DNA from: a bacterium | Lineage (GTDB): Bacteria > UBA9089 > JASEIO01 | Assembly (NCBI GenBank): GCA_030017475.1 | Contig: JASEIO010000002.1 | Span: forward strand, 1-63,204 | Length of the DNA stretch: 63,204 nt | Direction: 5' to 3' | In this document: piece after piece, positions 36,039 through 55,059 of the stretch | How the letters are laid out: the number at the start of each line of letters is the position of its first letter | Position numbering within the stretch: the first letter of the stretch is position 1 | The notes under the pieces: generated by a model | Databases searched by the model: none | Told to the model about the DNA's origin: nothing | The model's input: the letters and a program-made list of their open reading frames with translations, nothing else | Program-made: the position numbers and the translations under genes

Positions 36039-36077
36039 ATTATTCACCACCCTTTGTTTGAAATCCTTAAAGAATCT

Positions 36078-36533
36078 TCATCCTCTACGTCCTATCTGAA
36101 GACCTTCCTCTACCTTCCTCTTGACTCCCTCTAAGGTCTGGGTAGCCATCTTCTTTACAATTCGCGAAACAATCAGTCTTCCAATCAGATTTCCAATCAA
36201 AGGAACCTTCTTATATTCAAAGTCATGTGTTAAAACTATCCTTGTCCCATCATCTATTTCCGCAAACTTCCATTCTATCTTCATACCTTTTAGCGGACCC
36301 TCTAACTGCTCTGCCTTAATTAACCTTTTATCCTTATCCACAAAAACACGGGACCTCCACTTATAGCCAGCTTCACTTTCTCGCTCAACTATCATTTCCG
36401 GTCCCTCTTTACTTAAAATCCTTACCTCTTTATAGGTAGGTATAAATTCAGGATATCTTTCCACATCCGAAGATATTTCAAAAACCTCATCCACATTTCC
36501 TTTAATCACGATTGTATCTTCTGTATGTATCAT
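36078..36533 (-). CDS. SRPBCC (polyketide cyclase/dehydrase, START-like) protein (copy 2)
   Basis: TIVIKGNVDEVFEISSDVERYPEFI...LEGPLKGMKIEWKFAE. Paralog of 31627..32046. The ATG at 36533 lies 1 nt after the cyclase stop, behind GAGGAG. Confidence 0.7.
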   Translation of the reverse strand: MIHTEDTIVIKGNVDEVFEISSDVERYPEFIPTYKEVRILSKEGPEMIVERESEAGYKWRSRVFVDKDKRLIKAEQLEGPLKGMKIEWKFAEIDDGTRIVLTHDFEYKKVPLIGNLIGRLIVSRIVKKMATQTLEGVKRKVEEGLQIGRRG

Positions 36534-36534
36534 T

Positions 36535-37362: not shown

Positions 37363-37442
37363 CCTTTTACCACCTCCCAAAATTAGAGCTGATTAGCTAC
37401 ATCAAGATTAAGCTGCCAATTATTTAAGCCAGTACCTTAAGT

Positions 37443-40716: not shown

Positions 40717-41721
40717 CTACTCAACCTTTACTACATCATTGATCTTAAAACCTTGCCCTGATTTAATAACAGAGATTGAATATCCATCTTCTACATCTAT
40801 AACTTGAATTTCTCCAGATCTCTTCATTTCAAACCCTAAACCTTCCCCTGTTAAAGGATCAATTATCTCTTCGCCCAATGAATAGACAGTGAATATATCA
40901 CCAACCTTTGTTCCAACAGATGATCCACAATTTATATAAAATTTGTCTCCCTCAATCTTTATAATCCTTCCTTTTAAAAGAACTTTCTTTACATCTTCTC
41001 CATATTCCTTCTTTTTAGCCTTTTCGACCTCTTTACGCTCCCCATAATAAGGATAATGAGCCCTTCTAAAAGCCTCAGTAACTTTTTTAACAGCTTGATT
41101 TATTGCAAGTCTTGTTGCCTTTCCTATAGTTGTGCGGTTAAACTCCTTATCTCCAAAATCCATTCTTTGCAACTTAGTTAAATCAGACTCCGCAACTCTA
41201 CCTCTCCTCCTTAATTTCTTTGACACTTGTCCTTCAGCAGTTTCAGTGGCAAGGATATTTCCAGTCCCTGGATCAATTATCTTTATATCTAACTTAACCT
41301 TAGCTACCTCTGGCACTACCCTAACACGTCCCCTAACTTGCCCTTCCTGTTCCTTTATCTCAAATTCATCCACATCCCCTGTAATAATTGCATCCACTCC
41401 CAATATCTCTTTTACTATAGCAGCATATTGAGAGATAGCCTCTGGAGAAAATCCTAAGGCCTGCCCTTTAAATCTTTCCCTTTTTTCTATAACTACAAAG
41501 TCCTCTGATTCTACTAAAGCCTCAGTTAACTCATTAGCCATTCCTTTTCCTATATCCCAAAAGCTTGAGAATGTTCTATCTGTTTTATCTTCGAAAGCAA
41601 TTACAGTAACTAACCTCTTAGGAATTTCCTGCTCTATTCTTCTACCTCTAACACCAACTCTCACGCAACCAACAACCATTATTAAAATTAATAAATTGGC
41701 AATAAATATCTTTCGATTCAC
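40717..41721 (-). CDS. Lipoprotein, CsgG/LpoB-like N-domain plus C-terminal beta domain
   Basis: Lipobox (IMVVGC). VTVIAFEDKTDRT...GMANELTEALVESEDFVVIEKRE...AIITGDV resembles CsgG-family lipoproteins. The family assignment is tentative. Confidence 0.45.
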   Translation of the reverse strand: MNRKIFIANLLILIMVVGCVRVGVRGRRIEQEIPKRLVTVIAFEDKTDRTFSSFWDIGKGMANELTEALVESEDFVVIEKRERFKGQALGFSPEAISQYAAIVKEILGVDAIITGDVDEFEIKEQEGQVRGRVRVVPEVAKVKLDIKIIDPGTGNILATETAEGQVSKKLRRRGRVAESDLTKLQRMDFGDKEFNRTTIGKATRLAINQAVKKVTEAFRRAHYPYYGERKEVEKAKKKEYGEDVKKVLLKGRIIKIEGDKFYINCGSSVGTKVGDIFTVYSLGEEIIDPLTGEGLGFEMKRSGEIQVIDVEDGYSISVIKSGQGFKINDVVKVE

Positions 41722-43190: not shown

Positions 43191-43955
43191 TTATTTATTA
43201 TAGGTTTCTTCAATAAAGCCAATTGCTTTTTTGGCAATAATTTTCCCTGCTTCATCTTCAGGAATAATCACTTCATCAGCACCAGCTGATCTTACAACTC
43301 GAAGATATCTCGATTTCCCAACCCTTGTAATTATCCTTACCTCTGGGTTAAGATTTTTGGCTGTAATTGTAATGTATAGGTTATCCGGATCGTTATCGAT
43401 CAATACCAAAATCCCTTTTGCCTTTATGATTTGAGCTTGAAGTAAAACCCCTCTTCTTCTTGCATCTCCATTTATAACCAATTTTCCTTCTTCGAGTAAG
43501 GATTTAACTAAGCTTTCATCATTCTCAATAACCACAAATGGGATCTTATTTTCTGTAAGATTTTCTACAACAGTCCTTCCAACTTGTCCATAACCACAAA
43601 TAATTAAATGATTTTCGAGTTTCTCCAATCTAAGTTGATTTTTCATTTTTAACCACACCCCTTTTCCTTCCCCTTTAAAGAAACTGCGAAAAAATCTTTC
43701 AACTATCCAAATCCCTGAGAAGTATATTCCAAGGGTAACAAAAACAGAAAAGATTTTAGTTATTGACTGGATTTGGGCATTTGCAATGGCGGATCGATTA
43801 ACTAACCAGAATAATGCATCAATGAAAGAGATATGTTCCAAATGCATAAAGCCAAGTATAGATATAGATAGAAAGCACAACAGGAATAAGACTGGTAGTA
43901 GAAGAATCTTAATCAAAAACCATAAAGCTACGTTAAATGCAAATCTACTTTTCAT
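43191..43955 (-). CDS. Ion-channel-like membrane protein with an RCK/TrkA-N domain and a degenerate selectivity filter
   Basis: TM segments, then a pore-helix-like FIDALFWLV followed by NRSAIANAQI where TVGYGD is expected. Rossmann motif LIICGYGQVGRTV (TrkA-N). The ATG overlaps the upstream stop (ATGA). Confidence 0.65.
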   Translation of the reverse strand: MKSRFAFNVALWFLIKILLLPVLFLLCFLSISILGFMHLEHISFIDALFWLVNRSAIANAQIQSITKIFSVFVTLGIYFSGIWIVERFFRSFFKGEGKGVWLKMKNQLRLEKLENHLIICGYGQVGRTVVENLTENKIPFVVIENDESLVKSLLEEGKLVINGDARRRGVLLQAQIIKAKGILVLIDNDPDNLYITITAKNLNPEVRIITRVGKSRYLRVVRSAGADEVIIPEDEAGKIIAKKAIGFIEETYNK

Positions 43956-45922
43956 CTTATATCTGTCGGTTCATCTTCTTTCCAAAGGGGCTTAGGCCTG
44001 GAGACCTCTTTATGGATAGCATAGATAGTAATATTCTCATCTTCATAAAAGATATCCATATCTCGATGATAGATAGAATAAACTTGACACCATTCATTAA
44101 TCCTCCTTTGGAAATCATCCCTCCATCTATAATCAATTTCAATGCCTCCTTCTTTAACCCTAAACCCTTTTTTTTCAGTAAATATGAATATATGGGGGAT
44201 CTCTATGGGTAAGTCATCCTGAGGATTGTATCTACTCAAAAAATCTTCGATATGCATATGCCATCCTTTCTTTAAACACAATGGATACTCCTCAGTAGTC
44301 GATACAATCAACCATTCGTATGGAGTATACATTTTAGAAATCCTCAAATAACCTCTTATCATCCCATCGTATTCCATCTTAAAGGATTCAGGTGGCTTTC
44401 CCGGGAAAGCGATCCCCAATAAAAGGATTACGGAAATTGCAGCTCCAAACTGTCTATAGTTACCTATTAATATCCTACCTAAGATCTTAGAAGTTAAGAT
44501 ATAATAAAATAGTCCTAATGGTATGGAAATTAGTAAGCTTAAGAAATGACCTGTACTATAAGGGCAAACCACATGCCTTATTCCAAAGAAATTAGCCTTA
44601 TATTGAAAGAATAAGAAGAGTAGAAAAATAGTAAAGCTGAGGAAATCAAATTTATCTATCCTATCTTTGATAGTTATACCATATCCTATTAAAAAAAGAT
44701 TAATTGCTAAGATTACATACAATAAACCACTTAAATCTAAGGCCCCTGCCCTGAATTGAGGAGTAAATAGAGTAAAAAACCCAAGTGCTGATTCGTGCAA
44801 TTTATATCCAGATAAAAATCCTAATAAAATAGATAAATGCCCTAACAACAATGATGCTACGAATGCCAAAAGTACAGATATCAAAGTCTTTTTTGTCCAT
44901 AGACGGGCTATTATCCCTGATAGAAGAATAGAGACCATTCCAATCATAGCCATTAATCCAACTATAGAATGTACACGAAATATGATTACTAATCCTTCGC
45001 ATGAAAGCAAAAGGTATCTCGCTTTTCGCATGACTATATATCGTAGCATGAAGTATAAAGTAGGAAGTAAAAAAAGGGCTCCAAACTCTTGAGGTAAGGT
45101 TGTTGTTTGTCTATAAAGACCAAGGGGTAGTTGCTCCGCAATTGTTCCCCCATAGATAAATATACCATAAATAAATGAGGAAATAAGTGAGGCACCTTTA
45201 CTCCCTGTAAGCCTGTTAGTTATCCAATAACAAGATAAAACAGTTAATAGTGATATAAAAGGCCCCATAAATTTAAAGATATACACTGGATCAAGATATG
45301 TAAAAAAGTGGATGGAAGACAAAAAAGAGGCAAATCCCTCTGGATGAATCCCTGTGAGAAACAATCTATTCATCTCCATATCTTTCATTACCTTTATCCA
45401 TACATATGGATCTGAGGTTCCTAAAGCCTCATGCCGGAAAGAGTCATAAAACCTAAGATAGGCTGCATAACCCATTACTGGAATAAATGATAGAAGGTAT
45501 ATTAGATTGGATCTATCGCATGACCTTATTCTATCAAGGACCCTACCTTTTTTTTCGATTAGATATTCCTTGGATACCTTGACCAAATCTACTCCTTGAT
45601 CCAAAACATCAAGAAAAGAACTAACAACCCTTAAAAAGAAATTAGACAACCTCTCAAAGAAGGCCCATTTACGTCTATAAATTATAAAGCCAATACCTAC
45701 TAAGAGATAACCACCATATAAAGATAGCGGTTCATAGATGTGGAGAAGAACAAGAAAATGAACAAGAAGTAAGGTAATAAAGGTCATATGGGTTAAATTA
45801 ACAAAGAATTTATCTAAAATAGAATCCCCCTTTCTTTTTTTAATAAATAGACTGGGAAAAAGTATGTATACTAATAAGAAGAGAGATATAATCTTACTTA
45901 CAACGAATAGATTAGAGATCAT
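43952..45922 (-). CDS. Large polytopic membrane protein (656 aa), possibly a GT-C-fold glycosyltransferase, with a soluble C-terminal domain
   Basis: At least 12 predicted TM helices by eye. The loop YLRFYDSFRHEALGTSDPYVWIKVMKDM resembles the first-loop acidic motif of ArnT/PMT/STT3-like enzymes. The functional call is weak. Confidence 0.35.
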   Translation of the reverse strand: MISNLFVVSKIISLFLLVYILFPSLFIKKRKGDSILDKFFVNLTHMTFITLLLVHFLVLLHIYEPLSLYGGYLLVGIGFIIYRRKWAFFERLSNFFLRVVSSFLDVLDQGVDLVKVSKEYLIEKKGRVLDRIRSCDRSNLIYLLSFIPVMGYAAYLRFYDSFRHEALGTSDPYVWIKVMKDMEMNRLFLTGIHPEGFASFLSSIHFFTYLDPVYIFKFMGPFISLLTVLSCYWITNRLTGSKGASLISSFIYGIFIYGGTIAEQLPLGLYRQTTTLPQEFGALFLLPTLYFMLRYIVMRKARYLLLSCEGLVIIFRVHSIVGLMAMIGMVSILLSGIIARLWTKKTLISVLLAFVASLLLGHLSILLGFLSGYKLHESALGFFTLFTPQFRAGALDLSGLLYVILAINLFLIGYGITIKDRIDKFDFLSFTIFLLFLFFQYKANFFGIRHVVCPYSTGHFLSLLISIPLGLFYYILTSKILGRILIGNYRQFGAAISVILLLGIAFPGKPPESFKMEYDGMIRGYLRISKMYTPYEWLIVSTTEEYPLCLKKGWHMHIEDFLSRYNPQDDLPIEIPHIFIFTEKKGFRVKEGGIEIDYRWRDDFQRRINEWCQVYSIYHRDMDIFYEDENITIYAIHKEVSRPKPLWKEDEPTDIR

Positions 45923-45925
45923 CTA

Positions 45926-46765
45926 TTACTCTCCAAATTCAAGATTTACCATATATAATTTACTATGCGTAAGACTCGAAACACTAGGTATAAAACCAAA
46001 TGATCTTGCCCTTCTATAAGCAAATGTAATTAAATCCAAATCCGTCTCTTCGGTATAATCCAGGGTAAAGACATCGAATAAGGGATTATCAGTCCAACCC
46101 CTTATACTATTTATTCTATTTGCCTGGGAAGTAGTATAGGAAAGTTCAGAAGGCTTGAGCTTCTTCAAGGTAGAGCTGAAGCTTTCATACATAATAGCGT
46201 TAATGAAAGGTGTAATTTCCTGTAAAACTATCCATCCATTATTGACCAAGAGATACTCTTGTGGATATGTCTCACGGATCTTCCTTATCAGTTCAATCAT
46301 ACCAGGCTTAAGGATTTTCTCCTTTATATCCTCAGGATAAAGATGTGGATAAAGAACAGTATCCAGAAAGGCACCGCTGCAACCCAAGTCTTCTACAATA
46401 GTAGCCATCTTTTCATAAATAACATATTGTTGCCATCCTTTATCTTTAGGATTTACAAAATAGGATCCCCAATCCTTATGCCTATCAGGTTTGCCATCTG
46501 GTCCAGGTATATCACATCCTACGCCTGTAAAATAATCTAAATACCAAGATGCATATCCACCTGGCCCTTTTCCATTATGAACCTTTAATGGATAATCTTC
46601 TCCAATTGAGAGATAACCCAATACTTTGGTTTTATTGGTTTTTAAAAAGGCTATCTCCTGGGGGGTGTAATGCGCAGGTTGAATAATTACTAAGTCAAAT
46701 TTACAAAGGTCTCTTATTCTTCCTTTACCATAATAAACACAATAATTTCTAATATCTGACATCAA
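45926..46765 (-). CDS. GH114-like glycoside hydrolase (PelA hydrolase-domain-like / endo-alpha-1,4-polygalactosaminidase family)
   Basis: FDLVIIQP...VLGYLSIGE...WGSYFVNPKDKGWQ...GCSGAFLDTV follows the TIM-barrel GH114/TM1410 pattern. Located downstream of pelF-pelG. Confidence 0.6.
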   Translation of the reverse strand: MMSDIRNYCVYYGKGRIRDLCKFDLVIIQPAHYTPQEIAFLKTNKTKVLGYLSIGEDYPLKVHNGKGPGGYASWYLDYFTGVGCDIPGPDGKPDRHKDWGSYFVNPKDKGWQQYVIYEKMATIVEDLGCSGAFLDTVLYPHLYPEDIKEKILKPGMIELIRKIRETYPQEYLLVNNGWIVLQEITPFINAIMYESFSSTLKKLKPSELSYTTSQANRINSIRGWTDNPLFDVFTLDYTEETDLDLITFAYRRARSFGFIPSVSSLTHSKLYMVNLEFGE

Positions 46766-46776
46766 AAATCTGTGAT

Positions 46777-48351
46777 TTAAAAGGCTGAGTAATAATAGTA
46801 ATCAAGATGCTTAAAGACTCTAAAAGCGTAAATGGAAGATACAATCATGAAGACAAAGGCTCCTATTAAAAGACCAATTACTGCAAAATGGTGACCAAAG
46901 ATTCTGGAAAGGAAAAAACCCACTACAAAATTACAGATTATCCCAGGTATGATTGCACGAATTATAAAATGTGGACGGGATAAGGCAAAGAAAAAGATAC
47001 CATTAAACAATGCCCAAACCAGAAATACATATCCAACACACGCAGAGAAGAAAACAAAATAGGTAATTTCATTAAAGAAATTCTCAACATATTTAAAAAT
47101 CTCTATCCTATTTAGAAGAAACATTCCAGAATAGACTCCTATAATACTTAAGATAGAGATGAATAAAAACAGAATTAAATGATTTTTATAAAAGTTTATA
47201 AATCTTTGGTTAAAGTCCGAAACCCCTCTGGCTTTCACCTTTTTCTGCTCTGAAATTACAGTCCTTGAAAATGCCTCAATTGAATATTGTAAGACGCCTA
47301 TAGTTAAGACAAGAGAAATGAGTGCCCAAACCATTCCCAATTCATATTGAACCTTAAACCAGAGTATATAAGGCGAATCTCTCGAAGGAGTGGTCCAGGC
47401 TATTACTCTATCTAAGAATAAGAAGACAAAGTAAAGTACCCCATAGAGAAAATAAGGGAAGATAGAATAGATAACCATTGAAATACGCGGGAGATCTGAG
47501 GCTCTAAATTCCTTCTCAGCCTTCTTCGCCTTCCTCTGAAGCAACATATAACTAAAAAAGAGGCCTCCTATAATTGCTACCGAAAGTCCAATTACATGTG
47601 AGAATAAGATATCCAAACCAAAGAACTTGAATGCGATATGAACCGCAAGGATTCCTAAGGCAATCACCACGGTGCACAAAAACAATCTTTTAAGCATGTA
47701 TAGGGTAGCGAGACTTAACCATAGGAAGGAGAGAAAAAGGTAGTATATAAAGGCATACCAGAATATATAATTGGGTAGAAAACCGAAGAGAAGATTTATT
47801 ATAAGAAAGAGTAATCCAAAGAGAATTGTTGTGGTTGCTCCAAATCTAAATAATCTAAAGCAAACCTTTTTGGTTAAGATATCCTCTTTTTGATGGATAT
47901 AGAATAGACCCCTTCTCCCAATCGCCTGACAAAAGCCCCCAGTTATGATAAATGATAAAATTGTACCGACTCCAATTCCTGTTGCCCTCCCTACATCATA
48001 CAACATCCATGTCCAAAGTGAATAGGGAAGAATTAGCATAGCAAATATCATTACAACCATAGGCATGGCAAAAAAGAGTCCCGAAGAATAATATCTTAAG
48101 AACATCAACCAATTTGATTTCCTCTTCTCTGTCTCACCCCCTTTTATGGATTTTGAAATCCCTAATTCGGGGTAAATTTCATAGATATGTTTTGCCAAGA
48201 GGAAGGTATTTCCATATCCGAATCTCTCTACACAATCCTTATCAGTTATACCATTTGCCTCAATCAAGGCAGCTATTTCAAGGTAGCTTTGAGGTTTTCC
48301 CCTATCTTCAAGGATTTCTTTAGCCAATGCCAAAATTCGATCATCTACCAT
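46777..48351 (-). CDS. pelG: PelG-like polytopic exopolysaccharide transporter with an N-terminal soluble extension of about 90 aa
   Basis: About 12 TM helices, immediately downstream of pelF (7-nt gap after trimming to ATG 48351). The assignment rests on context and topology, not on motifs. Confidence 0.5.
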   Translation of the reverse strand: MVDDRILALAKEILEDRGKPQSYLEIAALIEANGITDKDCVERFGYGNTFLLAKHIYEIYPELGISKSIKGGETEKRKSNWLMFLRYYSSGLFFAMPMVVMIFAMLILPYSLWTWMLYDVGRATGIGVGTILSFIITGGFCQAIGRRGLFYIHQKEDILTKKVCFRLFRFGATTTILFGLLFLIINLLFGFLPNYIFWYAFIYYLFLSFLWLSLATLYMLKRLFLCTVVIALGILAVHIAFKFFGLDILFSHVIGLSVAIIGGLFFSYMLLQRKAKKAEKEFRASDLPRISMVIYSIFPYFLYGVLYFVFLFLDRVIAWTTPSRDSPYILWFKVQYELGMVWALISLVLTIGVLQYSIEAFSRTVISEQKKVKARGVSDFNQRFINFYKNHLILFLFISILSIIGVYSGMFLLNRIEIFKYVENFFNEITYFVFFSACVGYVFLVWALFNGIFFFALSRPHFIIRAIIPGIICNFVVGFFLSRIFGHHFAVIGLLIGAFVFMIVSSIYAFRVFKHLDYYYYSAF

Positions 48352-48358
48352 ATAATTC

Positions 48359-49855
48359 TCATTTTTCCCTTTTTGACTTGGAGAGATCGACCAGATTAAA
48401 GTAGCTCTGTTGATATTCCTTAACCATATTTTCAACAGTAAACATATTGAGGACCTTAGTTCTGGCATCTAATCCAAAGGTCTCTCGAAGCTCTTTATCT
48501 TTCAATAGCTTTATTATGGCCGTAGCAAATTCTTCAGGCTTTTTCGCTCTCACCATTAATCCACACCCTTCCAATGCCTCTCTTACCCCACCTACATCTG
48601 TAGCTACTATTGGCTTTCCTGAAGCCATTGCCTCGACAACTGTATAAGGAAAGGCTTCACTTATTGAAGTTAAGGCAACAATATCTCCTTTATTATAGAT
48701 TGTAGTTGGTTCTGATGTATATCCAGCGAATATTACATTCTCTGTCAACCCCAATTCTTCCCTTAATTTTATGCACCTTTCATAATATTCTGGGTTTGAC
48801 ACTTCACCATAAATCAGGAATTTAACATCTCCCATTTCTTTATTAACCAAAGATGCCCCCTTTATTAAGGTTTCAATATCCTTTATAGGATCCACTCGGG
48901 TTGCGGAAACAACTACTGTTTTTTCTCCTTCCTTTTTCTCCGCAGGGTAAAATACCCTTGGATCAACTCCATTGTAAATAGTTTTTATTCTTTCCTCTGG
49001 AACCCGATTTATAAATTCCCATCTTTTATTGTACTCACAAACAGGAGATATCTGATCAGCAAAATAGTAGCTTATCCGGGATATGCCAGAAATTAGATCT
49101 AAAAGAAATCCCTTTGAATATGAGATATGTTCCAACCTGGAAATAAATAGATGTTGCTCTTTCATGTAGATTCCATGTTCTGTTAATAGAAATGGCGTAT
49201 CATAGGAAAATTTCGAAATTATACAAGGGATTGAACAAAAGGCTGCAGCTGTAGAGTGAGTCACATCCGTTTTTGGAACAGGAACATTTAAGATTAAGAA
49301 GAATCGATATAACCATCTTAGACATTCTGTTAAGCTATAAAGGGAAGGGGGTTCTTCTTCATAAGTCTTGTCCTTTTCCGCAAACCGTAGCATCTCCTTT
49401 TTAAATATTTCCCAAACTGTTTCAGACCTAAAGGTTTCATTAATGTCGTATTCTTTAAAATATAGATGCAGTTTATATAAGGTTGTTCCTATTGAATAGG
49501 CCTCCTCTTCTGATCTATGTAAATTTCTGAGGAAGGTACGAAAAAGTGGGGCAAATTTTTTATTTATAGCTGATTCTGTAGTTTTCTTTTTTTTATAATA
49601 GATCTTAGAGAAAGGGATTTTTTTCAGATATTCTGTTGGCTCTTCTGAACCCCATAAAGGAAGGTGAATTATTTCACGTACATTTTTTGGAAGACTATAT
49701 TTACGTGAAACATAAGGGTTCATCATAATTGCAAATAAGGTGAAAGAGACTGCCTTACATCCTTTTATAAGGTTATCACACCATGTAGATACTCCTCCAG
49801 GATGAAAAGGATACGTTCCCTCTGTAGTCAGAAGAACAGAAACCTCCTCTTCCAT
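48359..49855 (-). CDS. pelF: PelF-type GT4 glycosyltransferase (DUF3492 N-domain plus GT1/GT4 C-domain)
   Basis: The N-terminus VLLTTEGTYPFHPGGVSTWCDNLIKG is the PelF/DUF3492 signature. The C-terminus has EAFPYTVVEAMASGKPIVATDVGGVRE (EX7E). Confidence 0.8.
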   Translation of the reverse strand: MEEEVSVLLTTEGTYPFHPGGVSTWCDNLIKGCKAVSFTLFAIMMNPYVSRKYSLPKNVREIIHLPLWGSEEPTEYLKKIPFSKIYYKKKKTTESAINKKFAPLFRTFLRNLHRSEEEAYSIGTTLYKLHLYFKEYDINETFRSETVWEIFKKEMLRFAEKDKTYEEEPPSLYSLTECLRWLYRFFLILNVPVPKTDVTHSTAAAFCSIPCIISKFSYDTPFLLTEHGIYMKEQHLFISRLEHISYSKGFLLDLISGISRISYYFADQISPVCEYNKRWEFINRVPEERIKTIYNGVDPRVFYPAEKKEGEKTVVVSATRVDPIKDIETLIKGASLVNKEMGDVKFLIYGEVSNPEYYERCIKLREELGLTENVIFAGYTSEPTTIYNKGDIVALTSISEAFPYTVVEAMASGKPIVATDVGGVREALEGCGLMVRAKKPEEFATAIIKLLKDKELRETFGLDARTKVLNMFTVENMVKEYQQSYFNLVDLSKSKREK

Positions 49856-49865
49856 TACCCTTCAC

Positions 49866-51284
49866 CTATTTGGTTAAATCTATCCCTAACATTAAGGCAA
49901 ACTTAATCTTATTAATCCAATAATCCTTAACTGAATCTAAGTATCTTTTCTTCGTCCACAAAAGCCTGTCAATGGCAAAAATCACATCTCTCTGTGTTTC
50001 AAATTCCAAATCATACCTTTCTTTTGTTATATCAAGTATCTCTTTTGCTCTATCCACCCTGCCCCTATTAACTATTAATCTTTCCAATGCGTCTTCACAC
50101 CGAAGATATGCCTCTTCCACTTCCATCTTTATTCTGTCTTTGAGTTCATCCCTTTCTAATTCAGATACCTCCTGTAATCTTTCTTGTTGCATAATCCTCG
50201 CCCGAGTTAATCCCCCATCAAAGATAGGGATTCTAAACATTGCCAAGAACCAGTATGCCTTTTTTCCTGGAAAGAGGTTGTCATCGGTATATCCATATTT
50301 TGCATCAAGGGTTAAGGTTGGATATCTTTCCCTCTGAGCTAACTTATAAGAAAGTTTGGCCTCCTCTATTCGATTATCTATCTTTTTCACTTCCACCAAA
50401 TTTTTATAAGCTAAATCTAAATATCTTTCTACAACCTCTTCTGGAAGTTTTATAGTAGTATACGCAACCTCTACATCTTCCCCTACTATCTTGTTTAATC
50501 TCTTCTTTGCTACAGTGAGTTCGGATTCTGCATGCATCAAATCATCTTTGGCTTCAAAAAATCTATCCTCTGCATTTAGTAATGTAATCCTAGGGCAGCC
50601 ACCTGTTTTATGAAAAAACCTGACCTTTTGTAAATGGTCACTTGTAATCTTAACTAAATTCTCCGCCTCCTTCTTTTCCTCCTGTTTTTCTAATACATCA
50701 CAATAGATCCGCACTGCATCAAGAATAACCTCCTGTTTTACTCTTGTAGCCTCAAGAAAAGCTAAAAACTCCTGCAACTTAGCCCTTTTTATTCTAATCT
50801 TTCTTTTTCCGAAGGTTATTAAATCCCAATGTCCAACCAAAAAGGCATTCCATTTATATGGATAAACCCGATACCAAGGCTCTTTAGAGCCAGTCTCATA
50901 ACTTAACTCTGCCCATATAGAAGGCCATGCATTTGCTCTAATTTCCCTACCACTTGACCATTCATAATCAATCCTTTTCTCTGCAATCTTTATTCTATGG
51001 TCATAAAGGACTGCCTTTTTCAAATAAAGTGAAAGATCTATATAACCACCCTCCTCCTTTGTTTTTTCTTCTTCTTCAATAATTTCTATTAAACTTTTGC
51101 TTCTTTTATGACGGGGATTTAAATCCAATACCTCTTTGAGGTACTGTTTTGCCCCTGGTAAATCTCCTATAAGGTATCTTTTCTTTCCCAACTCATAAAA
51201 TTCATCTTCATCCTTTGCAGATGTAAGGGTAATACATAGTAAACAGTAAGTAATAATCGATAAGATAATAAATCCCTTTTTCAT
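49866..51284 (-). CDS. TolC-family outer membrane factor with an N-terminal TPR-like segment
   Basis: Signal peptide, a TPR-like segment (FYELGKKRYLIGDLPGAKQYLKEVLDLNP), then duplicated OEP repeats (e.g. LAMFRIPIFDGGLTRARIMQQERLQE). Confidence 0.7.
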   Translation of the reverse strand: MKKGFIILSIITYCLLCITLTSAKDEDEFYELGKKRYLIGDLPGAKQYLKEVLDLNPRHKRSKSLIEIIEEEEKTKEEGGYIDLSLYLKKAVLYDHRIKIAEKRIDYEWSSGREIRANAWPSIWAELSYETGSKEPWYRVYPYKWNAFLVGHWDLITFGKRKIRIKRAKLQEFLAFLEATRVKQEVILDAVRIYCDVLEKQEEKKEAENLVKITSDHLQKVRFFHKTGGCPRITLLNAEDRFFEAKDDLMHAESELTVAKKRLNKIVGEDVEVAYTTIKLPEEVVERYLDLAYKNLVEVKKIDNRIEEAKLSYKLAQRERYPTLTLDAKYGYTDDNLFPGKKAYWFLAMFRIPIFDGGLTRARIMQQERLQEVSELERDELKDRIKMEVEEAYLRCEDALERLIVNRGRVDRAKEILDITKERYDLEFETQRDVIFAIDRLLWTKKRYLDSVKDYWINKIKFALMLGIDLTK

Positions 51285-51308
51285 CTTTCCCTTATTTCCT
51301 CTATTTAT

Positions 51309-52322
51309 TTAGAGACCAGGGACACAGAAAATTTTTATCTTAGCAGTATATCCTGGCTGAAAATTATAATTTGGATTAGGAAGGATAGCCTTTACCTTAC
51401 ACATCCCATCTTCTGACGAAGCCACTCTGGTTACAGAATGAACAGTAGTAGAAACCTTTGTTGGTGGAACTGTATTTACAACTACCTCTACATTTTGTCC
51501 CACCTTTACAAATTTTACTAAACCTGGAGATATCTTTGCCTCAACGAAGACCTTGGATATATCAACAATAGTTAAGAGTGGAGATCCTTCATATACCTTT
51601 TCATTTTTATGAACTGTTATATCGGTTATAAAACCTGACACTGGAGCCCGCACCATCGCCTCTTTCATATCTGCCTGCGCTTTTTGTAAATTAACCTTTG
51701 CCTCTTGAAGGGTGGTTCTGGCAGCCTGAATATCTTCATCTCTTGCAGCTAACACCCTTTCTAAATAAAGTTTTTCAATTTGATGTTCAGCACTGGCCCT
51801 TACATATTCATTTTCTATATCCTCTAATTCTTGTCTACTTATTACTTGTCTTTCATAGGCCTTTTTTGCCCTTTCTAATTTTTTGGATGCATTATCTGAG
51901 ATTACCTTTGTAGATTCAACTCGAGCTTGAGCAATCTTTACATCTATCCCTAACTCTTTGGTTTTTAACCGTTCTATTATCTTTGCATCAAGTCGAGCTC
52001 TTGCTTGAGCAACCAGGGAGCGGCTTGTGTCCAATTCAGCTGCATATAAATCAGTTTCAAAGGCAAGGAGCAGCTGACCCTTTCTTACAAATACACCCTC
52101 TTCTACAATAATTGAGGTTACCTTTCCCGTTAAAGGGGCTTTTACTACTATTTCATCTATAGGGAAAATTTCTCCCACTAATCTTATCTCCCTTTCTTCC
52201 AGTCCTTCATCCATTCCTCCTTTAGTAATTATAGGTCGGTTTTCCTCTTTGTTAGTACAAGCAGAAACAAAAAGTACTATAAAGAAAAAAGAACCAAAAA
52301 ATTTACAAAATCTTCTTTTCAT
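51309..52322 (-). CDS. HlyD-family periplasmic adaptor (membrane fusion) lipoprotein
   Basis: Lipobox (FVSAC), a lipoyl-like segment (APLTGKVTSIIVEEGVFVRKGQLL), a long coiled-coil hairpin and a beta-barrel segment (VRAPVSGFITDITV). Confidence 0.75.
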   Translation of the reverse strand: MKRRFCKFFGSFFFIVLFVSACTNKEENRPIITKGGMDEGLEEREIRLVGEIFPIDEIVVKAPLTGKVTSIIVEEGVFVRKGQLLLAFETDLYAAELDTSRSLVAQARARLDAKIIERLKTKELGIDVKIAQARVESTKVISDNASKKLERAKKAYERQVISRQELEDIENEYVRASAEHQIEKLYLERVLAARDEDIQAARTTLQEAKVNLQKAQADMKEAMVRAPVSGFITDITVHKNEKVYEGSPLLTIVDISKVFVEAKISPGLVKFVKVGQNVEVVVNTVPPTKVSTTVHSVTRVASSEDGMCKVKAILPNPNYNFQPGYTAKIKIFCVPGL

Positions 52323-52455
52323 AATTTCCTCTTCATCCTTCTAACAATGAAAACCTTCAACCACCTATATCGACCAAGCAGAAACTAAAGATTTTATGAA
52401 TTGTCCTACTATCTCATTATTAGCTATTGTTCTTGGTAGTGTTTTGAATTTTGGA

Positions 52456-52477
52456 TTTCGGTCATTCGGATTTAGAT
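52456..52477. repeat. TTYGGTCATTNGRATTT motif, copy 3
   Basis: TTTCGGTCATTCGGATTTAGAT in the divergent intergenic region, about 135-155 nt upstream of the HlyD-family gene. Confidence 0.5.
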
Positions 52478-52635
52478 TCCTCAAAGATAGTATTTTTATA
52501 ATAACATATCATATTATAGTATAGGATTGCAACAAAAAAATTAGTATGCAGGGTATGCCTCAGAGCTATCAGGTGTAAGATATCCTTTTTCTGTCATTCC
52601 ATAACTTGGACATTACGAAAAGGTGGAATTTTCAC

Positions 52636-52664
52636 TTTACATTTTCCCTAAGGTATGTTATGTT
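52636..52664 (+). promoter_or_regulatory. Possible sigma-70 type promoter for the 788-aa secreted protein gene
   Basis: TTTACA-N17-TATGTT, about 30 nt upstream of ATG 52693. Judged by eye only. Confidence 0.25.
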
Positions 52665-52692
52665 TTACAAGATATTTTAATGACATACCATA

Positions 52693-55059
52693 ATGAAGAG
52701 GCTATTTTTATCCTTTAGTATAATAATATACTCCTGTCAGGTCTTTGGAGTACAAGAGAAGGTATTAGTTGTGTATGACCCATCGATTGAGGTGGAAAAA
52801 GAGATAATCAGTAATTTCGGGCAAGCCTTGGATTATTCTAAGATACCTTATGAGCTAATAGACATATCCACAGATATAAATCCAGAAGGATATAGCTTAC
52901 TTCTCTTTGCAACAGAGATGGTTCAGAAACTTGATGTAAGTACTTGTGACAGGATAAAAGACTGGGTCAAGGATGGAGGAGATATAGTAGTAGGGATAAT
53001 GGGATTTAATGAGAACCTAAAAGAGGTTTTCGGTATCACTAATAGTCCCTCTTTTATCTCAACCAATGGATTGATATTTCAAGAAGAGCTCTTTCCTGGG
53101 GTAGAGGGTCTTTTTCTTAAAGAGAGATCCGAGATACAAAGCCTTAATGTTAAATTGGAAGAGGATGTAAAGGTCATTGCCAAATCATCAGATGGCTTGC
53201 CTTTGGTTTGGGAAAATTCATATGAAAAGGGGAAGGTGATCTATTGGAATTCGTGCCTTTTGGGAAATAAAGAATTTCGAGGGTTTTTGATCCAATCCAT
53301 ATTAAAGGCCCAGGATATAGGGGTATCTTTTCTTGCCAATTGTGGGATTATCTATATCGATGACTGTTCCCTTCCAATGTTGAATCTTGAGATGCCACCA
53401 ATAGACAAAAAGGATACAGAATTCTATGTAGAAGATTGGTTTTCAGGAATAATAGAACTTGGACATAGATATGGGTTAAGGTATACCTTAGCCAATGTGT
53501 TCAATTACAATAAAAAGACTTCACCTCCCTTTCCGATGGATGAGTGGAATCATGGTGAGATAGCAATAGATGGAGAAATGAAAAGGGCATCTCCTTATTT
53601 GGCCCATAGGTTTATGGAATATGGGGCTGAAATGGGGTTACATGGATATAACCACCAGCCATTGGTTCTAGATCCTCTTACAATTGATACAGTGGAATAT
53701 AGTAAAGGATGGGAAAGTGGAAGTAACATAAAAGAGGCCCTTAATAAGGCAAGGGAACAATGGATCAAGGATGATTTAGGCCCCCTACCTTTTACCTATG
53801 TCCCTCCTATGGATGTATATAGCAAAGAGGGATTAAAGGCACTACATGAAGCCTTTCCTGAGATAAAGGTAATAGGTGGAGCCTTTTTTGGAAATGAAGA
53901 GATCAAAGAAAGGATAGGATTAGGGGATCGAGAGTTTGGTCCTGAACCATGGAATGAAAATCTTTATTGTATCCCACGGGTTACTGCAGGATACATAATG
54001 ACGGAAAGTAAAAGATTAACTACAATAAGTTTTATCGGAAATTTTGGGGTTTGGTCTCATTTTATCCATCCAGATGATATCTATGATCAAGAGAGAAGGG
54101 GTCCGTATGATAGTTGGGAGGGGTTATGCAGTGAATTTGATAAGTATCTAGAATCTGTAACAACCAATTATCCATGGCTGAGATGGCTTACTGCAAAGGA
54201 TGCCTATAGAGCACTTGTGGATTATGAAGAGATTAAGATAGAAAGCTGTGAAATAGAAGAGTCGAAGATATATCTTAAATTTTCTGGGTATCCAATATAT
54301 TTTATGGTCAGGATAAATGATGGAAGGGCTATAGATCAAATGAAGATATCTAATTGTGAAGCTATATGTACTCAAAATAGAGAGGGGTATAATTATCTTG
54401 TCTTCAAGGCAACCGGAAAATCTGTAACTTTACCTATAACCAGTAGGTGGGTAAACCATAAACCAGAGATCAAAGTCTTGGGTCCTTCAGAGGATACAGA
54501 ATGTGAAGAGGGATTTATGATTAGGTGGTATGATTATGATCCAGATGATGATGCAAAAATCAGTCTATATTATGATACAGATAATGTGGGATATGATGGA
54601 ACATTGATTATTAGTGGAATAAGTGAAGATGATGGGGATAATAAATACTATTTTGATGTATCAAATCTTCCACAAGGGACCTATTATATCTATGGAAAAA
54701 TTAGCGACGGTATTAACCAACCTGTATATAGTTATAGTCAGGGCCGATTAATTGTAAAACCTGTAAAAACCATCGATAATGTCATAGCTTACCCTAATCC
54801 TTGCTTCCCTGATAAAGGACAAGTTGTGTATATTCTCAATCTACCTTTAGATGCAAACACTGTTTATATCTATAATATAGCTGGAGAGTTGGTATGTACC
54901 TTAGAAGAAGAGGATAGGATAACCAAAACAGGGATATCAAAAACTGCTATCTGGAATGTAAAAGATGAGAAAGGCAAATCTGTAGCTTCAGGAATTTATA
55001 TCTATCTATTGAAATCCGATAAGGGAGTAAAGGTCGGTAAGATTGCAATAATTCGATAG
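52693..55059 (+). CDS. Secreted multidomain protein: CE4-like polysaccharide deacetylase-type core, Ig-like domain, C-terminal FlgD-Ig/T9SS-type sorting-like domain
   Basis: Signal peptide. IYIDDCS and GLHGYNHQP (D-D and HxxxH, as in CE4 metal sites). DYDPDDDAKISLYYDTD...GTYYIYGKISDG (Ig-like). The C-terminus VIAYPNPCFP...VYIYNIAGELV...ASGIYIYLLKSDKG is typical of FlgD-Ig/Por-type tails. Confidence 0.5.
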   Translation: MKRLFLSFSIIIYSCQVFGVQEKVLVVYDPSIEVEKEIISNFGQALDYSKIPYELIDISTDINPEGYSLLLFATEMVQKLDVSTCDRIKDWVKDGGDIVVGIMGFNENLKEVFGITNSPSFISTNGLIFQEELFPGVEGLFLKERSEIQSLNVKLEEDVKVIAKSSDGLPLVWENSYEKGKVIYWNSCLLGNKEFRGFLIQSILKAQDIGVSFLANCGIIYIDDCSLPMLNLEMPPIDKKDTEFYVEDWFSGIIELGHRYGLRYTLANVFNYNKKTSPPFPMDEWNHGEIAIDGEMKRASPYLAHRFMEYGAEMGLHGYNHQPLVLDPLTIDTVEYSKGWESGSNIKEALNKAREQWIKDDLGPLPFTYVPPMDVYSKEGLKALHEAFPEIKVIGGAFFGNEEIKERIGLGDREFGPEPWNENLYCIPRVTAGYIMTESKRLTTISFIGNFGVWSHFIHPDDIYDQERRGPYDSWEGLCSEFDKYLESVTTNYPWLRWLTAKDAYRALVDYEEIKIESCEIEESKIYLKFSGYPIYFMVRINDGRAIDQMKISNCEAICTQNREGYNYLVFKATGKSVTLPITSRWVNHKPEIKVLGPSEDTECEEGFMIRWYDYDPDDDAKISLYYDTDNVGYDGTLIISGISEDDGDNKYYFDVSNLPQGTYYIYGKISDGINQPVYSYSQGRLIVKPVKTIDNVIAYPNPCFPDKGQVVYILNLPLDANTVYIYNIAGELVCTLEEEDRITKTGISKTAIWNVKDEKGKSVASGIYIYLLKSDKGVKVGKIAIIR

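Follow-up and report, generated by a model that had tools for sequence, protein, structure and literature searches.

Gene content of the locus

The analyzed DNA, referred to here as the window, is a 63.2-kb stretch of a 95.7-kb contig from a diderm bacterium, as it encodes LptA, LptC, SurA, an outer membrane factor (OMF), plus flagellar genes. Seven open reading frames on the minus strand occupy positions 43191–52322, and the ORF list of the window bore out the seven-gene operon that a first-pass annotation had claimed. In order, the genes encode a HlyD-family periplasmic adaptor (MFP), a TolC-family OMF, PelF, a PelG-like membrane protein, a PelA-hydrolase-like enzyme, a 656-aa GT-C-like membrane protein and an RCK channel-like protein, with intergenic spacings of 24, 10, 7, 11, 3 and −4 nt; the next gene past the operon, dtd, lies 100 nt away. 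These seven genes are not the whole system, since a divergent plus-strand gene for a PelA_DA-type polysaccharide de-N-acetylase (52693–55059) belongs to it and had been overlooked. The 370-bp region between the two transcription units (52323–52692) presumably holds the promoters for both; a sequence scan of this region gave no consensus promoter or terminator match above chance, and an Rfam scan of it, c-di-GMP riboswitches included, found no family at E ≤ 1. Genes for c-di-GMP signalling also occur in the window; one encodes a 7TM-GAF-HD-GYP protein, the other a fusion with a degenerate GGDEF domain.

PelF, PelG and the two PelA-like enzymes

PelF (48359–49855), a cytoplasmic glycosyltransferase with DUF3492 and GT4 domains and the presumed polymerase, passes NCBI's curated PelF model (NF038011, 187.5 bits; cut-off 100), in agreement with its initial assignment, and its hydrophobicity profile contains no hydrophobic segment. 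At E ≤ 1e-30, 3740 homologous sequences were found, of which the nearest shares 56% identity with it, and the Bacillota PelFs are closest to this PelF/PelG lineage, with 47–50% identity. For the PelG-like protein, the open reading frame extends to 48468; however, alignment with relatives places the true start at 48351 (MVDDR), and the gene at 46777–48351. PelG is its sole Pfam match, covering model positions 22–452 of 452, and its profile shows roughly 12 hydrophobic segments; the score stays under the curated cut-off (24.2–24.6 bits versus 29). PelG is likewise the sole match for 8 of 13 syntenic relatives, with a best E-value of 3e-11. An N-terminal extension of ~85 residues is conserved, with invariant N-terminal residues in the subfamily alignment. 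Judged from these sequences, the protein is a divergent PelG subfamily lying below the Pfam cut-off.

The hydrolase-like protein (45926–46765) is a TIM-barrel glycoside hydrolase of GH166/GH114-like type. The GH114 profile named in the first-pass annotation remains sub-threshold (19.4 bits versus 27) and a GH66 match is also weak, but the likeness to the PelA hydrolase holds: among solved structures it matches significantly only PelA (9cgy) and the hydrolase domain of PelA (5tcb), at E 2–3e-8 over residues 14–264. It has no signal peptide, as a hydrophobic N-terminus is absent and the in-frame ORF is not extendable upstream, and its access to the polymer is a point against the export reading favored below; the homologue in one related locus (L066) carries a lipoprotein signal. 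The divergently encoded deacetylase (52693–55059) carries a signal peptide and matches DUF2194 with 288 bits (CBM114 + CE26). It aligns over residues 35–547 to the structure of Bacillus cereus PelA_DA (9ZAU, E 3.6e-66), an enzyme with demonstrated deacetylation of alpha-1,4-GalNAc and required for Pel (PMC13254593). All the residues of the catalytic motifs are conserved, i.e., D223, D224, H317xxxH321, R429, H459 and D462, and the tail is a type IX secretion (T9SS) sorting domain (TIGR04183, 34.4 bits; cut-off 23). By homology, PelA is present here as two separate genes, one hydrolase-like and the other a deacetylase.

The periplasmic adaptor and the outer membrane factor

The MFP (51309–52322) matches TIGR01730 (RND_mfp) with 129 bits (cut-off 95) as well as HlyD_D23 and HlyD_3, has a long coiled-coil hairpin, and begins with a lipobox (VSAC) read from the sequence. 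Its solved relatives are MacA, EmrA and ZneB. The sequence stops directly after the beta-barrel domain, and from this length the membrane-proximal domain appears to be absent. The OMF (49866–51284) has a signal peptide, matches OEP/TolC with 142 bits and TIGR01844 with 107 bits, and finds OprJ and SilC among solved structures. The adaptor and OMF assignments made earlier were therefore sound. The OMF had also been described as beginning with a TPR-like segment that echoes PelB. A lone weak TPR motif is indeed found at residues ~26–64 (TPR_2 at E 0.004, below the cut-off; consensus-TPR structures at E 2e-4), but a single repeat gives the echo no weight, and OMFs of relatives have a C-terminal AMIN domain instead. 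By sequence, both the MFP and the OMF are generic members of their families.

The GT-C-like and RCK proteins

The 656-aa integral membrane protein (43952–45922) has no sequence match in Pfam or PDB and no similarity to a named GT-C family. Its AlphaFold2 model, built from a 61-sequence alignment, reached a pLDDT of 91.1 and a pTM of 0.91, and the best 25 Foldseek matches were all GT-C glycosyltransferases, the top 21 at E ≤ 3e-4; these included STT3/PglB, DPY19, ArnT, AftA, PMT, ALG3 and EmbB, which confirmed that the protein is GT-C-like. The family comprises 1156 clusters at 50% identity, and the syntenic protein of one related locus (L003) is 30% identical (E 7e-85). Its soluble C-terminal alpha/beta domain (residues ~520–640) is conserved, with W537, Y546, K584 and W611 near-invariant. 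In relatives, the GT-C gene is adjoined by a GT2 + DUF2304 pair, for which GacI/GacJ/GacL offers a precedent (bioRxiv 10.1101/180810); these partners are absent from the 63-kb window.

The last gene of the operon (43191–43955), whose first 4 nt coincide with the end of the GT-C gene, encodes a channel-like protein with two TM segments, one RCK domain (TrkA_N, 111 bits) and full-length alignment to the MthK and GsuK channels, so that its earlier description as RCK channel-like was upheld. It has lost the selectivity filter: NRSAIANA stands where TTLGFGD would be. None of 113 related loci encodes the RCK protein, and from this comparison it is specific to this lineage.

Distribution of the cassette among related loci

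We compiled 62 non-redundant related loci with 5 kb or more of flanking sequence upstream. In 45 of the 62, the MFP and OMF genes immediately precede PelF-PelG; one locus has a partial pair and 16 have neither gene. The loci with the pair span lineages of 36% to 73% GC, include many Acidobacteriota MAGs and usually keep the gene order, and the nearest relatives of PelF (53–56% identity) are all found within MFP-OMF-PelF-PelG-...-GT-C clusters. In the Acidobacteriota locus L031, for example, Pfam detects HlyD, OEP (53.9 bits) and PelG (29.8 bits). MFP-OMF-PelF-PelG-GT-C is a recurrent cassette. The GT-C gene itself is nearly universal across the related loci and is often duplicated; however, L002 and L037 keep MFP-OMF-PelF-PelG and are missing GT-C.

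Fourteen of the 16 loci without MFP/OMF form a distinct class, in which PelF and PelG are 1.2–2.2 kb apart and GT-C is retained, often in two copies. Desulfovirgula (L009, Bacillota) is the only named organism in it. Both loci of this class that were examined (L008 and L009) have a PelF form of ~580 aa, and TPR hits were recorded for L008. L057 and L066, with contiguous PelF-PelG and no MFP/OMF in the available flank, count against the export reading that we favor.

No RND or ABC families occur in the precomputed annotations of L001–L008, L032 and L033, and a search for ORFs with ABC-ATPase motifs near L001–L031 found only one, in L026, ~8 kb downstream. In none of the annotated loci does an ABC, RND or MFS gene adjoin the MFP/OMF pair.

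A candidate export route for a Pel-type polymer

The absence of PelB, PelC, PelD and PelE was confirmed within the window: its ORFs of 120 aa or more yielded neither a TPR-porin nor a PelC-like ring lipoprotein nor a TM-GAF-GGDEF protein. Likewise, no PelB/C/D/E-like genes were found in those related loci that have 10-kb flanks. PelD and PelE are needed for Pel synthesis in P. aeruginosa and B. cereus (PMC13254593); a system without them would need another way to recruit and activate PelF, a point against the reading favored here. The first-pass annotation had proposed an alternative export route through an adaptor and a TolC-type duct. The recurrence of the pair in 45 of 62 loci with no adjacent pump supports this proposal about as far as genome comparison can, and nothing that the first-pass annotation had named as refuting it turned up in the window or the related loci. 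We consider it rather probable that the locus encodes a synthase-type machine whose Pel-related polymer leaves by a dedicated adaptor-plus-duct, with the MFP/OMF pair as the supported candidate for passage across the envelope where PelB/C/D/E are absent. The sub-cut-off scores of PelG and the hydrolase and the absence of GT2 and DUF2304 partners from the window weigh against this reading.

It is possible, although unlikely, that the genes instead serve a lipid-linked glycoconjugate pathway, in which PelF would build on a polyprenyl carrier, PelG would act as a Wzx-like flippase, GT-C would polymerize the glycan or transfer it en bloc to an envelope acceptor, and MFP/OMF would export or position the product. 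GT-C finds its best structural counterparts in the oligosaccharyltransferases STT3 and PglB, which transfer lipid-linked glycans en bloc, and its near-universal, often duplicated occurrence would fit such a role. PelG is generally described as a predicted exporter only (PMC13254593), and two hallmarks of a synthase complex, PelD and PelE, are missing. However, the operon has no gene for an initiating phosphoglycosyl transferase, and the pairing with a small GT2 and DUF2304 points to decoration by a single sugar from a polyprenyl-monophosphate donor and not to en bloc transfer. L002 and L037, in turn, indicate that GT-C is not essential to the core, and homologues of PelA_DA and PelA_H suggest a long alpha-1,4-GalNAc-type chain.

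We regard it as more doubtful still that canonical PelB, PelC, PelD and PelE complete this system from another site in the genome, with the MFP/OMF pair an accessory or second exit. Our view covers 63 kb of a 95.7-kb contig, and c-di-GMP signalling genes (for the 7TM-GAF-HD-GYP protein and the GGDEF fusion) are present in it. Against this, pel genes are normally clustered (PMC7112194; PMC7112168), such genes were detected neither among the window ORFs of 120 aa or more nor in the related loci with 10-kb flanks, and the PelF/PelG lineage is nearest to the Bacillota PelFs.

The inner-membrane partner of the adaptor had been left as PelG and/or GT-C, and of these two PelG is favored. Adaptors often dock on periplasmic domains, as in RND and MacB systems, and GT-C, encoded in the operon with the MFP, would offer its conserved extracytoplasmic C-terminal domain with the near-invariant W537, Y546, K584 and W611. 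That GT-C takes the place of PelG is nevertheless very unlikely: L002 and L037 have MFP/OMF without GT-C, the class without MFP/OMF retains GT-C, and the MFP apparently lacks the membrane-proximal domain by which docking on large periplasmic domains occurs. Finally, the pair could be a conventional efflux or type I secretion module that merely lies upstream of PelFG and works with an unlinked pump of the inner membrane. Both proteins are generic, TolC-family ducts are commonly shared among systems and the promoter scans are compatible with an internal promoter. Such a module is nevertheless highly improbable, given the pair's position directly 5' of PelF-PelG in 45 of 62 loci of 36% to 73% GC, its absence from the 14-locus class in which PelF and PelG are separated, the lack of an ABC, RND or MFS neighbor in any annotated locus and the mere 10 nt between the OMF stop and the PelF start.

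For export through the adaptor and duct, we propose the following sequence of steps. Cytoplasmic PelF would polymerize the chain from UDP-HexNAc, and the divergent PelG would move it across the inner membrane. The lipoprotein MFP, with no room for a membrane-proximal domain, may form a ring on PelG and join the dedicated TolC-family duct, through which the polymer would exit the cell; because the adaptor would link PelG to the duct, the pair would substitute for PelB and PelC. GT-C would work on the outer side of the inner membrane, most likely attaching a side-chain sugar that a polyprenyl-phosphate donor supplies, a role suggested by the GT2 plus DUF2304 neighbors in relatives, which reproduce the GacI/GacJ pairing. 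A closed MFP–TolC conduit and a periplasm-facing GT-C step are in tension with each other within this explanation. The PelA activities would be divided between separate proteins: the type IX tail may send the deacetylase to the cell surface, which fits a polymer bypassing the periplasm, and the hydrolase-like enzyme may trim or release the polymer. The product is probably a partly de-N-acetylated alpha-1,4-HexNAc exopolysaccharide, with GalNAc as the likely sugar. PelD and PelE would not be used, and regulation may depend on the lineage, with the RCK protein as the putative regulator here and HD-GYP proteins or histidine-kinase/GGDEF pairs elsewhere.

Comparison with known systems

We found no description of a Pel architecture with MFP/OMF export in the searchable literature, and on gene content the locus differs from either of the two Pel classes that have been catalogued. 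Like P. aeruginosa pelABCDEFG, the locus has a DUF3492 + GT4 PelF-type enzyme, a PelG-family protein and PelA-type hydrolase and deacetylase activities, in a diderm host with an outer membrane to cross, and its likely product is also a partly deacetylated alpha-1,4-HexNAc polymer. In contrast, PelB (TPR + porin), PelC (lipoprotein ring), PelD (c-di-GMP receptor) and PelE of that system were not detected here; PelA is split in two, with a deacetylase of the CE26/DUF2194 type unlike that of P. aeruginosa PelA; and the MFP/OMF pair, the GT-C enzyme and the RCK protein are extra. With pelDEA_DAFG and the accessory pelA_H of B. cereus ATCC 10987, the locus shares a PelF nearest to those of Bacillota (47–50% identity), a deacetylase homologous to PelA_DA (9ZAU) and, as in bacilli, a separate gene for a PelA_H-like hydrolase (PMC7112168; PMC13254593). 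It differs in its diderm host, in the presence of MFP/OMF and GT-C, and in that PelD and PelE went undetected. Where B. cereus PelA_DA has a TM helix at its N-terminus, for which docking on PelG has been proposed, the deacetylase here carries a signal peptide and, at its other end, a T9SS tail.

Export by a synthase, an MFP and TolC has precedents in the rhizobial mixed-linkage glucan system BgsA/BgsB/TolC (PMC13438883) and in cyanobacterial cellulose (Xcs), which that paper cites. Both combine an inner-membrane polysaccharide maker with a HlyD-like adaptor and a TolC-type duct and have no TPR-porin, as here; in both, however, a processive membrane-embedded GT2 synthase polymerizes and translocates the chain, while in our locus the soluble GT4 PelF and PelG are separate. 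The OMF is dedicated and operon-encoded here, whereas S. meliloti relies on its housekeeping TolC. AcrAB-TolC, MacAB-TolC, EmrAB-TolC and HlyBD-TolC likewise pair an MFP (lipoyl, hairpin and beta-barrel domains) with a TolC-family OMF, but the locus has no ABC, RND or MFS transporter and its cargo would be a polysaccharide. In the abstract of PMC8277102, the known tripartite partners are ABC, RND and MFS transporters and none is PelG-like; the PelG-family candidate here would fall outside the partner classes given there, which weighs against the export reading.

The GT-C, small GT2 and DUF2304 genes of related loci resemble GacI/GacJ/GacL of Streptococcus pyogenes and PpgS/Rv3632 of M. tuberculosis, and by this likeness one HexNAc at a time is predicted to pass from a polyprenyl-phosphate donor to the polymer outside the cytoplasm (10.1101/180810). 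Unlike in those modules, the GT2 and DUF2304 partners are missing in the window and the GT-C protein resembles no named family; the acceptor here would be a Pel-like chain in place of polyrhamnose or arabinogalactan.

Operon structure and core components

Seven ORFs were found on the minus strand between positions 43191 and 52322, with successive gaps of 24, 10, 7, 11, 3 and -4 nt, and 100 nt separate the last of them from the neighbouring D-Tyr-tRNA deacylase gene (dtd). The seven-gene minus-strand operon proposed in the first-pass annotation was thus recovered ORF by ORF. The block is not distinguished from its surroundings by base composition, and promoter and terminator scans gave matches no better than chance.

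The PelF assignment was confirmed: the protein encoded at 48359-49855 (minus strand) matched the NCBIfam equivalog NF038011 with 187.5 bits (cut-off 100), and both expected parts were present, i.e., DUF3492 (150.7 bits) and the GT4 domain (Glycos_transf_1, 113.5 bits). It has thousands of homologues, the nearest of which share just 53-56% identity with it at a length of about 490 aa. Behind these come PelFs of about 580 aa, and those with a named source are from Bacillota. The PelG-like gene occupies 46777-48468 (minus strand) as an ORF; alignment with 12 syntenic relatives places its start at 48351 (MVDDR...), 7 nt past the PelF stop. PelG was its sole Pfam match, spanning essentially the whole model at 24.2-24.6 bits, under the cut-off of 29, and neither NCBIfam nor the solved structures gave a match. 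Eight of 13 proteins of this subfamily matched PelG alone (best E 3e-11), and the protein of the Acidobacteriota-type locus L031 reached 29.8 bits. The window protein has about 12 hydrophobic segments, and the subfamily carries a conserved N-terminal extension of about 85 residues outside the Pfam PelG model.

An HlyD-family adaptor and a TolC-family outer membrane factor had also been claimed, and profile scores bear both out. The adaptor (MFP; 51309-52322, minus strand) matched TIGR01730 with 129 bits (cut-off 95) and HlyD_D23 with 71.7 bits, and the outer membrane factor (OMF; 49866-51284, minus strand) matched OEP with 142 bits over two repeats. As read from the sequence, the MFP is a lipoprotein with the lipobox VSAC and a coiled-coil region of about 140 residues. 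Solved structures related to it are those of MacA, EmrA and ZneB, and the chain stops just past the beta-barrel domain; by length, it would be too short for the C-terminal half of the membrane-proximal domain. We infer an EmrA-like state, which would suit partners lacking large periplasmic domains. The OMF appears from its sequence to have a type I signal peptide, and the more specific models TIGR01844 and TIGR01845 scored under their own cut-offs. Its TPR-like segment, previously taken as an echo of PelB, was reduced to a single weak motif at residues ~26-64 (TPR_2 E 0.004, under the cut-off; consensus-TPR structures E 2e-4). Neither the operon nor its flanks encode an ABC, RND or MFS transporter.

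Pel components not detected in the window, and c-di-GMP-related proteins

The Pfam scan covered the ORFs of 120 aa or longer in the window, save a few opposite-strand ones inside longer ORFs. Among the ORFs of at least 120 aa in these 63 kb no counterpart of PelB, PelC, PelD or PelE was found, in agreement with the absence claimed earlier. For PelB, no TPR-rich or porin-like ORF was present apart from the OMF and its one motif, and no PelC-like lipoprotein was detected in the window. PelD (TM-GAF-degenerate GGDEF) and PelE (TM and TPR) were absent from the operon, the window and the annotated related loci. A CsgG-family lipoprotein (40717-41721, minus strand; 56 bits) is encoded 1.5 kb downstream of the operon, separated from it by dtd and a gene with a metallo-beta-lactamase fold. 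It might be part of an outer-membrane secretion apparatus, and it is not conserved beside the related loci.

A 7TM (HisKA_7TM)-GAF-HD-GYP protein is encoded 12 kb from the operon (29025-31034, minus strand) and resembles PelD in the logic of its layout, with membrane, GAF and c-di-GMP domains. Its candidacy as a PelD substitute was not supported: HD-GYP genes are linked to the cluster in six related loci (L002, L003, L005, L007, L008 and L066), and the HD-GYP domain (37-38% identity over 180 residues) is all that these proteins have in common with it. Neither a c-di-GMP riboswitch nor any other Rfam family was matched in the 5' region or the window.

PelA is encoded as two separate proteins

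The 279-aa protein encoded at 45926-46765 (minus strand) had been described as a PelA-hydrolase-like GH114 enzyme. The likeness to PelA held, since its sole significant solved relatives are PelA (9cgy) and the PelA hydrolase domain (5tcb), with E 2-3e-8 over residues 14-264, whereas the GH114 match was weak, as was a match to GH66. Because the PelA structures are the only significant solved relatives, 'PelA-hydrolase-like' is the preferable name. The protein has no signal peptide and no hydrophobic N-terminus, and the ORF cannot start further upstream because the PelG stop lies 11 nt away. A homologue in the low-GC metagenome locus L066 (10347-11138) bears a lipoprotein signal.

Divergent from the operon, at 52693-55059, lies a gene overlooked in the first-pass annotation. 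Its product is a DUF2194 protein (288 bits), a domain that marks Gram-positive PelA orthologues (PMC7890745). It aligned with the crystal structure 9ZAU, the deacetylase part of Bacillus cereus PelA (PelA_DA; PMC13254593), with E 3.6e-66 (residues 35-547 against 48-551). B. cereus PelA_DA acts on alpha-1,4-GalNAc oligosaccharides as a de-N-acetylase, Pel production depends on it, and it is the founding member of the CAZy families CBM114 and CE26 (PMC13254593). All motif residues described in that work are identical in the window protein, comprising the Asp-Asp pair (D223, D224), HxxxH (H317, H321), the base-coordinating Arg (R429), and the acid His with its activating Asp (H459, D462). In contrast to the N-terminal TM helix of the B. 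cereus enzyme, the window deacetylase carries a signal peptide together with a type IX secretion (T9SS) sorting domain at its C-terminus (TIGR04183, 34.4 bits; cut-off 23).

With a hydrolase-like gene and a separate PelA_DA homologue, the window encodes PelA as two proteins, as in bacilli, judging from homology. Of all the evidence, this speaks most strongly for a Pel-like alpha-1,4-HexNAc product; together, the homologies of PelF, PelA_DA and the hydrolase part (PelA_H) suggest alpha-1,4-linked GalNAc/GalN.

Gene order in related loci

Among the nearest PelF relatives with readable contigs, a single order recurred throughout: MFP, OMF, PelF, PelG-like, a gene of about 300 aa, a protein of about 690 aa, GT2 and DUF2304. 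The OMF of these relatives usually bears a C-terminal AMIN domain. Scanning GTDB species genomes with the GT-C family represented by the 656-aa protein of the operon revealed 23 loci, one from Desulfovirgula (Bacillota) and 22 from Acidobacteriota, mostly Thermoanaerobaculia. The acidobacterial loci are ordered MFP-OMF-PelF-PelG-GT-C-GT2; in L031, Pfam recognized HlyD, OEP (53.9 bits) and GT2 beside PelG, and the order was repeated in L032 and L033, two further PelF relatives. In these Acidobacteriota-type loci a histidine kinase gene is divergent from the MFP gene (L031:2608-3933, L032:4757-7752, L033:4734-7555), accompanied in L032 and L033 by a response regulator with PAS and GGDEF domains, which hints at c-di-GMP control without the PelD receptor.

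A further 80 loci came from scanning metagenomes with the alignment of the PelG subfamily, and an HMM census then covered all 113. Of the non-redundant loci, 62 had 5 kb or more of sequence upstream of PelG; in 45 of these, MFP and OMF lie directly upstream of a contiguous PelF-PelG pair (GC 0.60-0.73). Only one of the two was detected in a single locus (L020) and neither in 16 of the 62; 14 of these form a distinct class, the exceptions being L057 and L066. In the distinct class PelF and PelG are spaced 1.2-2.2 kb apart, and seven of the 14 loci have two GT-C paralogues. In the two loci inspected PelF was of the ~580-aa form, TPR matches are on record for L008, and the sole named organism is a Bacillota (L009). 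Two tandem GT-C paralogues were frequent among L008, L009, L045, L046, L052, L053, L055, L057 and L060, and in L008 PelF and PelG are separated by two small genes, of which one has a weak DivIVA-like match.

No RND or ABC families were found in the annotations of L001-L008, L032 and L033, and an ABC-ATPase motif scan of L001-L031 gave no nearby ORF save one in L026, about 8 kb downstream. A pump-less MFP/OMF pair that is fixed before PelF-PelG across very different GC contents and missing from a differently laid-out class argues against coincidence. The export route proposed for a Pel-type polymer, through an adaptor and a TolC-type duct, thus gains support from conserved synteny. As the inner-membrane partner of the adaptor, PelG and/or the GT-C protein had been suggested. 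L002 and L037 keep MFP and OMF while lacking GT-C, and the class devoid of MFP/OMF keeps GT-C; this pattern points to PelG, not GT-C.

The window is the only low-GC member (0.36) of the MFP/OMF class in our sample. Its accessory set (PelA_H, GT-C and PelA_DA) is similar to the one in the low-GC loci L066 and L042, in whose available flank, 5.5 kb upstream of PelF, no MFP or OMF was found. These two metagenome loci (L066:3286-17181 and L042; GC 0.37) encode a PelF-like DUF3492 protein, PelF, PelG, HD-GYP, a PelA_H-like lipoprotein, GT-C and a PelA_DA homologue of 1264-1315 aa, and look like a further architecture with the accessory set of the window. The slot between PelG and GT-C in the closest MFP/OMF-type relatives is taken by a lipoprotein family of about 300 aa with no Pfam match (L001:13105-14010, L002:13088-14029, L003:6449-7348, L005:13116-14015, L006:13046-13969). 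It proved unrelated to the hydrolase-like protein of the window, with no similarity between them, and is a possible further periplasmic component of this sub-class.

The GT-C and RCK proteins

The 656-aa membrane protein (43952-45922, minus strand) matched no profile, and sequence comparison of its family with Pfam and PDB gave nothing usable. A word-indexed homologue search yielded just 3-4 relatives; an exhaustive profile search gave 1156 clusters at 50% identity (E<=1e-3), 405 of them with E<=1e-30, and most of the best 150 matches were full-length (630-720 aa). The AlphaFold2 model built from four sequences was discarded (pLDDT 50.7), and the one built from a 61-sequence alignment reached pLDDT 91.1 and pTM 0.91. 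When this model was compared with the PDB by Foldseek, the best 25 matches were all GT-C enzymes (STT3, PglB, DPY19, ArnT, AftA, PMT, ALG3, EmbB), with E values of 2e-7 to 3e-4 and TM-scores of 0.36-0.51 for the top 21, and transporters ranked only beneath them, with probabilities <0.2. At the level of the predicted fold, in which a multi-TM core is joined to an extracytoplasmic C-terminal domain, these matches uphold the description of the protein as GT-C-like. Near-invariant charged residues in the family are E64, R157, D171, K180, R271, E279, H318 and R456.

The ~690-aa protein of the related loci is a full-length homologue of the window GT-C (30% identity, E 7e-85), and is adjoined downstream by a small GT2 and then a DUF2304 protein. 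The window itself encodes none of the partners known from relatives (GT2, DUF2304, CE4, ATP-grasp or MurJ). The DUF2304-family protein GacJ stimulates the GT2 enzyme GacI, which makes GlcNAc-P-undecaprenol, and the GT-C enzyme GacL moves this GlcNAc onto polyrhamnose; M. tuberculosis PpgS/Rv3632 is an analogous pair (bioRxiv 10.1101/180810). By analogy, the GT2 and DUF2304 neighbours in relatives suggest a polyprenyl-phosphate sugar donor for the GT-C family, whose most likely role is the decoration of the growing polymer outside the cytoplasm.

The gene of the last protein (43191-43955, minus strand) overlaps the GT-C stop by 4 nt and encodes a TrkA_N (RCK) domain. The protein had been called RCK channel-like; the RCK N-lobe and a two-TM scaffold do align, full-length, to the channels MthK and GsuK, but the selectivity filter is lost, reading NRSAIANA versus TTLGFGD in MthK/GsuK. 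Neither a TVGYG-type filter nor a TrkA_C lobe (the RCK C-lobe) was found. The protein was found in none of the 113 related loci and is a lineage-specific addition, possibly with a regulatory role.

Comparison with known systems and a model for export

The Pel classes catalogued in the accessible text of three surveys are the Gram-negative pelABCDEFG and the Gram-positive pelDEA_DAFG, the latter with accessory pelA_H and galE, and the catalogues include rearrangements, losses and some loci in which pelF and pelG alone were found (PMC7112194, PMC7112168, PMC7890745). The window fits neither class as described there, having MFP/OMF and GT-C in addition and no detected PelD or PelE; the accessible parts of these catalogues mention no MFP/OMF or GT-C component. 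In the searchable full-text literature we found nothing relevant on a PelF/PelG cluster joined to TolC/HlyD-type export or GT-C. The mixed-linkage glucan of S. meliloti needs BgsA, the HlyD-like BgsB and TolC, and for cyanobacterial cellulose a comparable tripartite system has been proposed (PMC13438883). These systems share the export logic proposed for the window but rely on GT2 synthases. The locus thus brings a Pel core together with a tripartite-type exit and a GT-C module, and does not amount to a new kind of system.

We consider it fairly probable that a Pel-type polymer is made by PelF/PelG and exported through MFP/OMF. PelF would polymerise a HexNAc chain in the cytoplasm and PelG would translocate it, and at the outer face of the inner membrane GT-C may attach a side-chain sugar. 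An MFP ring atop PelG would join the dedicated OMF, and the polymer would leave through the duct. Outside the cell, a surface-displayed deacetylase, delivered by the type IX pathway, would render the polymer cationic, and the hydrolase-like enzyme would trim it. A sealed route bypassing the periplasm could explain why the deacetylase has a surface-sorting tail instead of a membrane anchor. The weakest points of this model are the recruitment and activation of PelF without PelD/PelE, a periplasm-facing GT-C step set against a closed conduit, and a hydrolase without a signal peptide. The fuller proposal is more tentative and, in our judgement, somewhat doubtful: a dedicated tripartite PelG-MFP-TolC machine that extrudes a Pel-type cationic polysaccharide past the periplasm in one step, with the deacetylase surface-sorted via T9SS and the c-di-GMP checkpoint of PelD/PelE dispensed with, forming a third widespread Pel class common in Acidobacteriota.

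The known inner-membrane partners of MFP/OMF assemblies, as given in the accessible text of PMC8277102, are ABC, RND and MFS transporters. In the fuller, more tentative proposal, the PelG family would be a fourth partner class, with GT2 synthases as an emerging further case. The window and at least 45 related loci point to a third Pel architecture, for outer-membrane bacteria, in which an efflux-type adaptor and duct replace the TPR-porin/PelC exit and the c-di-GMP receptor module is absent. It would add a putative GT-C decorating enzyme from an unnamed family of about 1,150 clusters at 50% identity. Polysaccharide passage through a TolC-type channel and its energy source, PelF/PelG function without PelD/PelE, and the hand-over of product by PelG, whose own mechanism is a prediction, all become testable. 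Pel is among the most widespread biofilm polysaccharides and Acidobacteriota are abundant in soil; the locus type is a candidate matrix polymer system for this phylum.

Other features of the window

The window also encodes LptA, LptB, LptC, SurA, aromatic amino-acid enzymes, HPr kinase and PTS components, and flagellar proteins; the genes for the latter, at 949-13226, include flagellin, FlgK, FlgL-like, FliW, FlgN and a 1024-aa FapA protein with repeated domains. A Bacteroidota origin, hinted at by the type IX tail, was rejected on the basis of the flagellin, FlgK, FliW, FapA, HPr kinase and PTS genes. Flagellar genes, a type IX sorting-domain protein and HPr kinase/PTS thus occur in one genome, whose tested proteins are singletons at 90% identity, and the source looks like a deep-branching diderm lineage.

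At 33681-36050 (minus strand), a continuous 789-aa ORF joins a PocR sensory domain, a GGDEF domain with a degenerate active-site motif (GGKKF) and a full-length FabF, beta-ketoacyl-ACP synthase II (560 bits), with no stop codon and no obvious start codon at the junction. To our knowledge, a c-di-GMP-type domain is rarely joined to a fatty-acid condensing enzyme. Around it (31031-37380, minus strand) are encoded two ICMT/PEMT-type membrane methyltransferases, two SRPBCC/polyketide-cyclase-like proteins and a 'putative cyclase', and these genes may form a cluster for modifying lipids or polyketide-like compounds. Another fusion, of 733 aa (37443-39644, minus strand), combines DHH/DHHA1 phosphoesterase domains with the head domain of a CCA-adding enzyme/poly(A) polymerase.
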